Assembly (NCBI RefSeq): GCF_003334255.1
Contig: NZ_QOWU01000091.1
DNA from: Escherichia coli
GTDB lineage: Bacteria; Pseudomonadota; Gammaproteobacteria; Enterobacterales; Enterobacteriaceae
Reading direction: 5' to 3' (one strand)
DNA: 9,150 nucleotides
The translations under genes were made by a program, and so were the position numbers. Below the pieces are notes generated by a model that was not told where the DNA came from, ran no database searches, and saw only the letters and a program-made list of their open reading frames with translations. Positions 1,965 through 2,412 of this stretch are shown here, piece by piece. The number at the start of each line of letters is the position of its first letter. Position 1 is the stretch's first letter.

Positions 1965-1988
1965 TAAGTTAAGTTAAGTTAAGTTAAG
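1965..1988. repeat. Pentanucleotide microsatellite (TAAGT)x4 plus TAAG
   Basis: Direct inspection of taagttaagttaagttaagttaag. On the minus strand the repeat supplies the TAA stop (1979..1981) that ends the epmB-like fragment. Confidence 0.9.
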
Positions 1989-2287
1989 CGAACGCCGTAT
2001 TGACGTTTACGATCGGTGGAGAATCCGGGCGCACCGACAAACTCATCTTGCGAGGTAATTACCTGACGCAAAAGCGGATCGTCCGGATTGCCTTTCTCCA
2101 TGCGATCGATAAATGCTCGGGGCACACGCAGGGCAAACAGCTTTTTGGCGCTGCGTCCGGCCAACAGTTTTTCGTCCGCGTCTATATTCAAAAGACGCAG
2201 AAGTTCATCAGGAACGGTCACAACATCGGCAAGTTGCGTTAACCAATCATCTCTTGATGGGGTATTTAGGGTTACAATATACGTCAT
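1979..2287 (-). pseudogene. epmB: N-terminal fragment of an EpmB/YjeK-like (KamA family) lysine 2,3-aminomutase; radical-SAM core absent
   Basis: 102-aa ORF. The first ~85 aa (MTYIVTLNTPSRDDWLTQLADVV...DPLLRQVITSQDEFVGAPGFSTD) closely match my recollection of the E. coli EpmB N-terminus. Similarity then breaks and the ORF terminates inside the (TAAGT)n repeat. No CxxxCxxC radical-SAM motif is present. Confidence 0.55.
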
Positions 2288-2328
2288 TTTGTGACTTAAC
2301 CACTAATTAACAAATTTCAGAGGATTTT

Positions 2329-2412
2329 ATGGCAAAGTACTATAGCAACGATTTTCATTCTAGTCTGCCCATTCTGGCGTTGAATGAGGACAATCAACAA
2401 TTAAAGTCGTAA
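2329..2412 (+). pseudogene. efp: Elongation factor P-like 5' fragment (27-aa ORF), divergent from the epmB-like fragment
   Basis: ATG at 2329 preceded by AGAGGA (2319..2324). It encodes MAKYYSNDF..., resembling the EF-P N-terminus (MATYYSNDF...) as recalled. It lies 41 bp from the epmB-like start on the opposite strand, mirroring the divergent efp/epmB arrangement. Sequence diverges after ~10 codons and stops at 2410..2412. Confidence 0.35.

Follow-up and report, generated by a model that had tools for sequence, protein, structure and literature searches.

Positions 1979 to 2412 of a 9,150-nucleotide stretch of Escherichia coli DNA (the window) raise the question of whether an accessory region carries a second elongation factor P (EF-P) modification system or a displaced piece of the core chromosome, and of where such DNA came from and how it reached its present place. 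The initial annotation of this segment proposed a truncated second copy of the housekeeping efp/epmB pair, derived by capture or duplication from a core locus and situated next to IS and R-M remnants, with a decayed paralogous EF-P modification module as the alternative. We find that the first of these holds, and that positions 2013 to 2366 (the relic) are very probably a piece of the E. coli chromosome that has no function and was trapped at a rearrangement junction within a thrW-integrated island of ED1a-like E. coli. The junction that holds the relic is situated between the myo-inositol (iol) module of the island and its defence module, which includes a type I R-M remnant, Rpn, TOTE, and Gp2.

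A 354-bp fragment of the core epmB-efp locus

Alignment of window positions 2013 to 2366 with the native E. coli epmB/efp locus is ungapped and collinear over 354 bp, with 93.5-94.1% identity and an E value of 2e-156, far past chance, and the proposed similarity to efp/epmB is highly significant. By direct alignment, 333/354 positions are identical to the native locus of strain 042, and 331/354 to the native copy of P24_WM1_05.20, a strain that itself carries the relic. The match covers epmB codons 1-92, the whole spacer, and the first 11-12 efp codons (Table 1), such that 92/342 codons of epmB and about 12/188 codons of efp are kept. This collinear nucleotide homology, which extends through the non-coding spacer, marks the segment as a pseudogene fragment of a core locus. 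A megablast search with positions 1979-2412 finds a match in all of the complete E. coli genomes (5426/5426), and the non-relic matches are about 94% identical over query positions 35-388 and lie under annotated epmB and efp.

These alignments agree closely with the layout first described for the locus. The start codons are on opposite strands, at 2287 (-) and 2329 (+), and are 41 bp apart; the ungapped alignment and the shared spacer confirm that the pair mirrors the housekeeping efp/epmB arrangement. The EpmB-like N-terminus, which was put at about 85 residues before a break, is slightly longer, with homology to codon 92. The EF-P-like start gives way after 11-12 codons to divergent sequence and a stop codon at 2410-2412, also as described.

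Table 1. Features of the relic and its flanks, in window coordinates
Feature	Position	Strand	Description
iol-island DNA, ~70 bp	1740..1810	-	Kept upstream of iolR; homology to second iol island ends about 1810
Plasmid scrap, 166 bp	1808..1973	.	From ~40-kb conjugative KorB/KfrB-type plasmid; Fic/DOC toxin gene remnant
(TAAGT)4.8 microsatellite	1965..1988	.	Copy number strain-variable
102-aa ORF	1979..2287	-	92 EpmB-like codons plus 10 unrelated codons through the IS66-end scrap
IS66-family (ISEc23-like) terminal scrap	1983..2010	.	27/28 bases match the outer end of ISEc23
epmB'	2013..2287	-	Codons 1-92 of EF-P beta-lysylation protein EpmB; ungapped alignment, TIGR03821
efp/epmB spacer, 41 bp	2288..2328	.	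Between the start codons
efp'	2329..2366	+	First 11-12 codons of elongation factor P (MAKYYSNDFHSS)
hsdS'	2362..2455	-	First ~29 codons of type I R-M specificity subunit; 6-bp tandem duplication (KWKW)
GTCT microhomology	2363..2366	.	efp'/hsdS' junction, from native-vs-window reading
hsdM'	2445..3253	-	C-terminal ~270 codons of type I methylase; internal stop, 1-bp insertion at 2742

Coding capacity of the relic

Neither reading frame in the relic can specify a complete protein. The 102-aa ORF matches the NCBIfam EpmB profile TIGR03821 at positions 1-77/321 only (E value of 3e-24), and its score of 85.6 bits falls well below the cut-off of 369.3 that defines a full-length equivalog. The frame departs from EpmB at codon 92 and is closed at codon 102 by a stop that the TAAGT repeat supplies, and epmB' lacks the radical-SAM CxxxCxxC core. 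The E. coli form of this motif, CAVNCRYC, lies about 35 residues beyond the break and is seen only in longer native fragments (e.g., P0020). The efp' ORF codes for a total of 27 aa, consisting of MAKYYSNDFHSS followed by 15 unrelated codons; this tail is the reverse strand of the hsdS fragment (antisense hsdS'), through which the ORF runs to 2412. The 27-aa peptide has no NCBIfam family match, and efp' lacks Lys34, in contrast to an EF-P of ~188 aa with three domains and a loop carrying the modified Lys34.

The epmB part was already known, as a PGAP/RefSeq pseudogene call precedes the present work. PGAP describes it as 'incomplete; partial in the middle of a contig; missing C-terminus' at positions 21875-22150 of a RefSeq locus (L001), which map to about 2012-2287 of the window.

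The relic is not the sole efp/epmB copy in the genomes that carry it. All seven relic-carrying complete genomes have two matching places each, and in P24_WM1_05.20, the one inspected, there are intact efp (567 bp), epmB (1029 bp), and epmA genes about 0.54 Mb from the relic. With working efp and epmB genes intact elsewhere, the relic is an ordinary pseudogene remnant.

Source of the DNA

Native epmB-efp loci were fetched from species representatives, and 17 of these were aligned with the relic. Identity is highest to the four E. coli natives (92.7-94.1%), followed by Escherichia whittamii and two unnamed Escherichia species (91-93%), Escherichia albertii (88%), Citrobacter (84-86%), and Salmonella, Leclercia, and Kluyvera (79-80%). 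There are 29 columns that set a uniform E. coli state apart from that of another Escherichia species, and in 27/29 of these the relic sides with E. coli. None of the 5426 genomes has a native allele more than 95% identical to the relic, and a contig scan of the species representatives finds none with more than 92% amino-acid identity to it. A protein search for a full-length EpmB with the residues of the relic yields just short fragments, none more than 93% identical and each of partial length, and is uninformative as to full-length donors, a question on which the DNA search of the 5426 genomes bears instead. The identity ranking, the diagnostic columns, and the comparisons with native alleles and species representatives together show that the source is E. 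coli-type DNA, rather than a foreign genus or a diverged paralogue, and this is the outcome of the comparison between duplication and horizontal origin that the initial annotation had called for.

Two other origins are to be weighed against this. If the island had brought the fragment from a different genus or a remote Escherichia lineage, such as a Salmonella-like iol donor, then the 6% difference would be orthologue divergence; every E. coli native does differ from the relic by 6%, the names given to the adjacent iol genes are of Salmonella type, and Ala58 of the relic is the Citrobacter and Salmonella state. We consider such an arrival exceedingly unlikely, however, as E. coli is the closest relative and Salmonella is just 79% identical, the Escherichia-diagnostic columns are overwhelmingly in the E. 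coli state, and the differences fall at positions invariant in 51 natives rather than at the synonymous sites that vary between orthologues. A foreign genus is rejected as the source on the identity ranking and the diagnostic columns, and this explanation is already largely refuted.

The second is the paralogous module, which would make the relic the last remnant of a complete efp/epmB module, once island-borne and decayed in place. The divergent arrangement and the length of the spacer are exactly kept, as would be expected of such a module, but only 354 bp remain in all 11 related loci and the rest of both genes is gone, whereas a paralogous module should retain a near-complete efp and a modification enzyme gene, diverged from the housekeeping pair. 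Moreover, gradual decay is not what the boundaries suggest, since both are abrupt joints to unrelated DNA (the IS66 end and hsdS, the latter with microhomology), and the sequence is E. coli-allele-like and not paralogue-like. The probability of a decayed module is next to negligible, and this part of the original proposal is unsupported. A plasmid-borne relic was also considered and rejected, as the efp/epmB matches in PLSDB are native-like and lie in mislabelled chromosomes or large replicons, and none has the relic.

Distribution and island context

The relic is present at full length and with 100% identity in 7/5426 complete E. coli genomes, and also in ED1a-type assemblies. In the seven complete genomes the island is integrated at tRNA-Thr (thrW) next to proA, with the gene order iol cluster, iolR, EpmB pseudogene, N-6 methylase pseudogene, Rpn, TOTE primase-helicase, Gp2, YfjI, and tRNA-Thr. 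The ten places that were read, including E. coli ED1a (CU928162.2), have the same arrangement with a relic that is identical base for base, and among the related loci (11/11 with an identical relic) none holds more of either gene. The window as a whole is 99.9% identical to the ED1a-type loci, and the identity of the relic among loci reflects a recent common origin of the whole left part of the island. An IolR protein exactly matching that of the window is found in 1140 blocks of the assembly collection. The literature that we found on iol islands is confined to work on Salmonella and Aeromonas, and does not describe the E. coli junction of the relic.

We note that the right part of the window differs in some genomes. 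Relative to the seven RefSeq complete genomes, positions 90-5250 are essentially identical and 5250-9073 are diverged, which indicates a recombination breakpoint near 5250. Divergence from these genomes is mostly 2-5% in the TOTE primase-helicase gene (5127-7517) and the Gp2-type gene (7648-8211), and rises to about 10% near the 3' end. The ED1a-type loci match the window through at least 7744 at 99.9%.

DNA flanking the relic

To the left of the relic, the short stretch of iol-island DNA gives way to plasmid and IS sequences (Table 1). A different E. coli strain carries a second iol island that has diverged (L098; NZ_CP148318.1), with an iolR that is 85% identical and is preceded by a 565-bp upstream region next to a LysR gene, showing that the island in the window has lost all but about 70 bp of this region. 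Living plasmids from hosts that include E. coli, Salmonella, Shigella, and E. fergusonii match the plasmid scrap at 99-100% identity, and this scrap is far less diverged than the adjoining efp/epmB one. The motif TTAAG bounds both ends of the plasmid scrap and is common to both sides of the plasmid/IS joint. The TAAGT repeat is one unit longer in the window and in one related locus (L095) than in ED1a, the RefSeq locus, and eight other related loci. The body of the IS66 element is missing and epmB' is in its place, starting two bases after the IS end. Elsewhere in the iol module, positions 63-884 contain a frameshifted IS110-family transposase remnant between iolR and iolT1, in which a 43-bp stretch (842-884) is missing from the seven RefSeq genomes.

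To the right, efp' passes into hsdS' at the GTCT microhomology, where native efp reads GCTGGTCT and continues as TAAA, native hsdS reads CCTGAGTCT and continues as GTCC, and the window reads TCTAGTCTGCCC. The IS and R-M remnants among which the captured copy had been placed are thus both present. hsdM' is decayed, with 33 relic-unique changes in 813 bp, and the hsd remnant is nearest to the island-borne hsdMSR located beside YagK/Gp2 genes in strain 13E0767. hsdM' has 7 unique differences relative to the island-borne hsdM copy and 27 relative to the immigration control region (ICR) copy; the remnant is therefore probably what is left of the island's own decayed R-M system. The efp and ICR hsd genes are presumably collinear in K-12, and a single deletion of ~200 kb joining efp to the ICR hsd genes was considered; it was dropped, as the hsd order here is M-S-R and hsdM' is nearer to the island copy.

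Several genes of the defence module lie beyond the hsd remnant. The Rpn-family recombination-promoting nuclease gene (3478-4455) is intact and 1.1 kb from the relic, with a 12-bp tandem repeat (x3.4; 3596-3636) that encodes (AQGM)n in the C-terminal region; this region of Rpn proteins is described as a separately translated, highly variable antitoxin domain (PMC10327210). Between Rpn and TOTE there is a 126-aa ORF (4729-5109, +) without an NCBIfam match, overlapped by a 103-aa ORF (4552-4863, -) that has a weak precomputed match to PF27752 (UCP030791).

Substitutions in the relic

The relic has 20 differences from E. coli, 16 of which are unique among the 17 natives, and 14 of these are at columns invariant in all 17. 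Six of the changed positions are invariant in 51/51 Enterobacterales natives, and most of the others are nearly invariant. The residues unique to the relic are T2, Y3, V25, and G85 in epmB' and K3, H10, S11, and S12 in efp', and all four efp' changes are non-synonymous (T3K, R10H, A11S, and G12S). There are seven substitutions in the spacer, five of them unseen in any of the 51 native Enterobacterales loci. The pN/pS ratio of epmB' against E. coli is 0.65-0.75 (from small counts of 3-4 synonymous and 7-8 non-synonymous differences), as compared with 0.14-0.24 between native orthologues. This ratio, the unique changes at invariant positions, and the changes in efp' together show a relic released from purifying selection.

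The differences are not spread evenly, and 13/20 are within 82 bp (2281-2362; Fisher p about 1e-4), a zone that extends from the 5' codons of efp across the spacer into the first three codons of epmB. The density of substitutions here is 16%, compared with 2.6% in the rest of epmB', and yet this zone is the most conserved among the natives, with 12/87 variable columns versus 116/267. All except one of the 13 changes in the cluster (12/13) are GC to AT, and the changes in the relic include three tandem multi-base changes. The neighbours of the relic are nearly unchanged, with 1 mismatch in 79 bp of hsdS' and 0-1 mismatch in the 166 bp of the plasmid scrap. Uniform neutral decay does not fit a relic with both a cluster and near-unchanged neighbours, and the uneven divergence implies that the pieces either differ in age or mutated at unequal rates. 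Four causes of the cluster are possible: an intrinsic mutability of the open divergent initiation region, unmasked by the loss of selection; selection for the silencing of a second efp start; gene conversion by a native allele in the left part of the relic; and mutagenic synthesis when the relic was formed. The relic is in this respect a small natural experiment, in which the removal of selection has been followed by change at 16% of the positions in a region that is near-invariant in Enterobacterales.

Predicted function of the relic

Since the relic is without the catalytic portions of the two proteins and intact genes for both lie elsewhere, it is predicted from its sequence to be inert as to EF-P modification. 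It also carries little weight for EF-P biology, as the strains keep normal efp, epmB, and epmA genes and the scrap cannot encode either activity. A search of 1650-2550 finds no promoter-like or terminator-like consensus, and an Rfam scan of the whole window gives no match.

It is very unlikely that the relic has been co-opted for another role, whether in driving iolR, in producing an antisense RNA over hsdS'/hsdM', or in coding for a small EpmB N-terminal protein. Such roles would be compatible with the open 102-aa ORF, with the location of iolR on the same strand 240 bp downstream of epmB' without a terminator-like site between them, and with the perfect conservation of the relic in the related loci. 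However, that identity is accounted for by the recent common origin of the left part of the island, just 79 bp upstream of the epmB start are kept, and the substitutions fall exactly on the initiation region. The absence of a promoter-like consensus in 1650-2550 and of any Rfam match also weighs against co-option, as do the roughly 70 bp of original upstream DNA still attached to iolR, which include a putative extended -10-like sequence, TGTGATAAT. Promoter capture for iolR is unsupported, given the outcome of the consensus search and this retained upstream DNA.

Formation of the mosaic

The relic region is a patchwork of unrelated scraps, with 4-5 bp of microhomology at two of the joints and the IS66 end at the third. 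Conjugative plasmids can capture chromosomal DNA via an IS through prime-plasmid or cointegrate formation, as in the formation of F-prime plasmids. The plasmid scrap, the IS66-family end, and epmB' stand in an order that suggests, tentatively, that they may derive from a joint between plasmid::IS66 and chromosomal epmB, a route read from the order of the scraps alone. A conjugative plasmid with an IS66-family element would have joined the chromosome at epmB in a cointegrate or prime-plasmid manner, the IS body would have been deleted after this joining, and the efp side would have been joined to the hsdS of the island by illegitimate recombination at GTCT. We did not find an IS66 element within the native epmB of any genome, nor a longer intermediate of the relic among the 11 related loci.

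The mosaic could also be explained if template switching at microhomologies, perhaps with the help of Rpn, had copied a short stretch of the chromosome as templated 'filler' into a junction under break repair, with error-prone synthesis at insertion yielding a substitution cluster and tandem changes. The microhomologies at two junctions, the succession of several short unrelated scraps over about 1.5 kb, the three tandem multi-base changes, and the sharpness of the 82-bp cluster are all consistent with this, as is the presence of an intact Rpn gene nearby. RpnA raises RecA-independent recombination, and both primer-template switching and the 'microhomology-mediated sequence assembly' of islands have been proposed (PMC5350276). 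We nonetheless consider filler synthesis unlikely, as the plasmid scrap and hsdS' would have been copied likewise and are nearly unchanged, and the substitution cluster does not abut the left junction. The action of Rpn on DNA here is also putative, and Rpn proteins are described as toxin-antitoxin phage defence systems as well (PMC10327210). A broader form of the proposal, in which the entire 1.5-kb run of five scraps (plasmid, IS66 end, efp/epmB, hsdS', and hsdM') is the footprint of Rpn-promoted template switching during assembly of the island, is decidedly unlikely. If it were true, the efp/epmB piece would have been inserted as filler, and the cluster of GC-to-AT and tandem changes would document either repair synthesis that was mutagenic or an intrinsically high mutability of the efp initiation region in the absence of selection.

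By whichever route it formed, the relic is a marker of the assembly of the thrW island, and shows that core chromosomal DNA can be carried into the junctions of an island along with the ends of plasmid and IS sequences. For annotators, it should not be counted as a second efp/epmB system. The substitution cluster and the mosaic of scraps beside an Rpn gene are minor curiosities.

Comparison with known systems

The relic has the same divergent arrangement and 41-bp spacer as the native epmB (yjeK)-efp locus, but the native locus lies between yjeJ and ecnA, whereas the relic is in the thrW island. It carries the same label as other PGAP partial pseudogenes of E. coli islands, and its neighbours are also pseudogenes (hsdM', an IS110 transposase, and an IS91 transposase), although the efp' part, the IS66 scrap, and the plasmid scrap are not annotated by PGAP. 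Unlike the usual gene remnants of islands, its source is a housekeeping translation-factor locus and not island cargo.

The order of plasmid DNA, IS end, and chromosomal DNA at the relic is the same as in prime-plasmid or cointegrate capture. In contrast to such captures, only 166 bp of plasmid and 28 bp of IS are left, and the structure is now chromosomal and within an island. The joints with 4-5 bp of microhomology and the adjacent intact Rpn-family gene also resemble the RecA-independent joining associated with Rpn (YhgA-like) proteins (PMC5350276). The relic differs from this in that one of its junctions has an IS66 end, which suggests transposition-related events, and the link to Rpn at this locus is drawn from sequence features.
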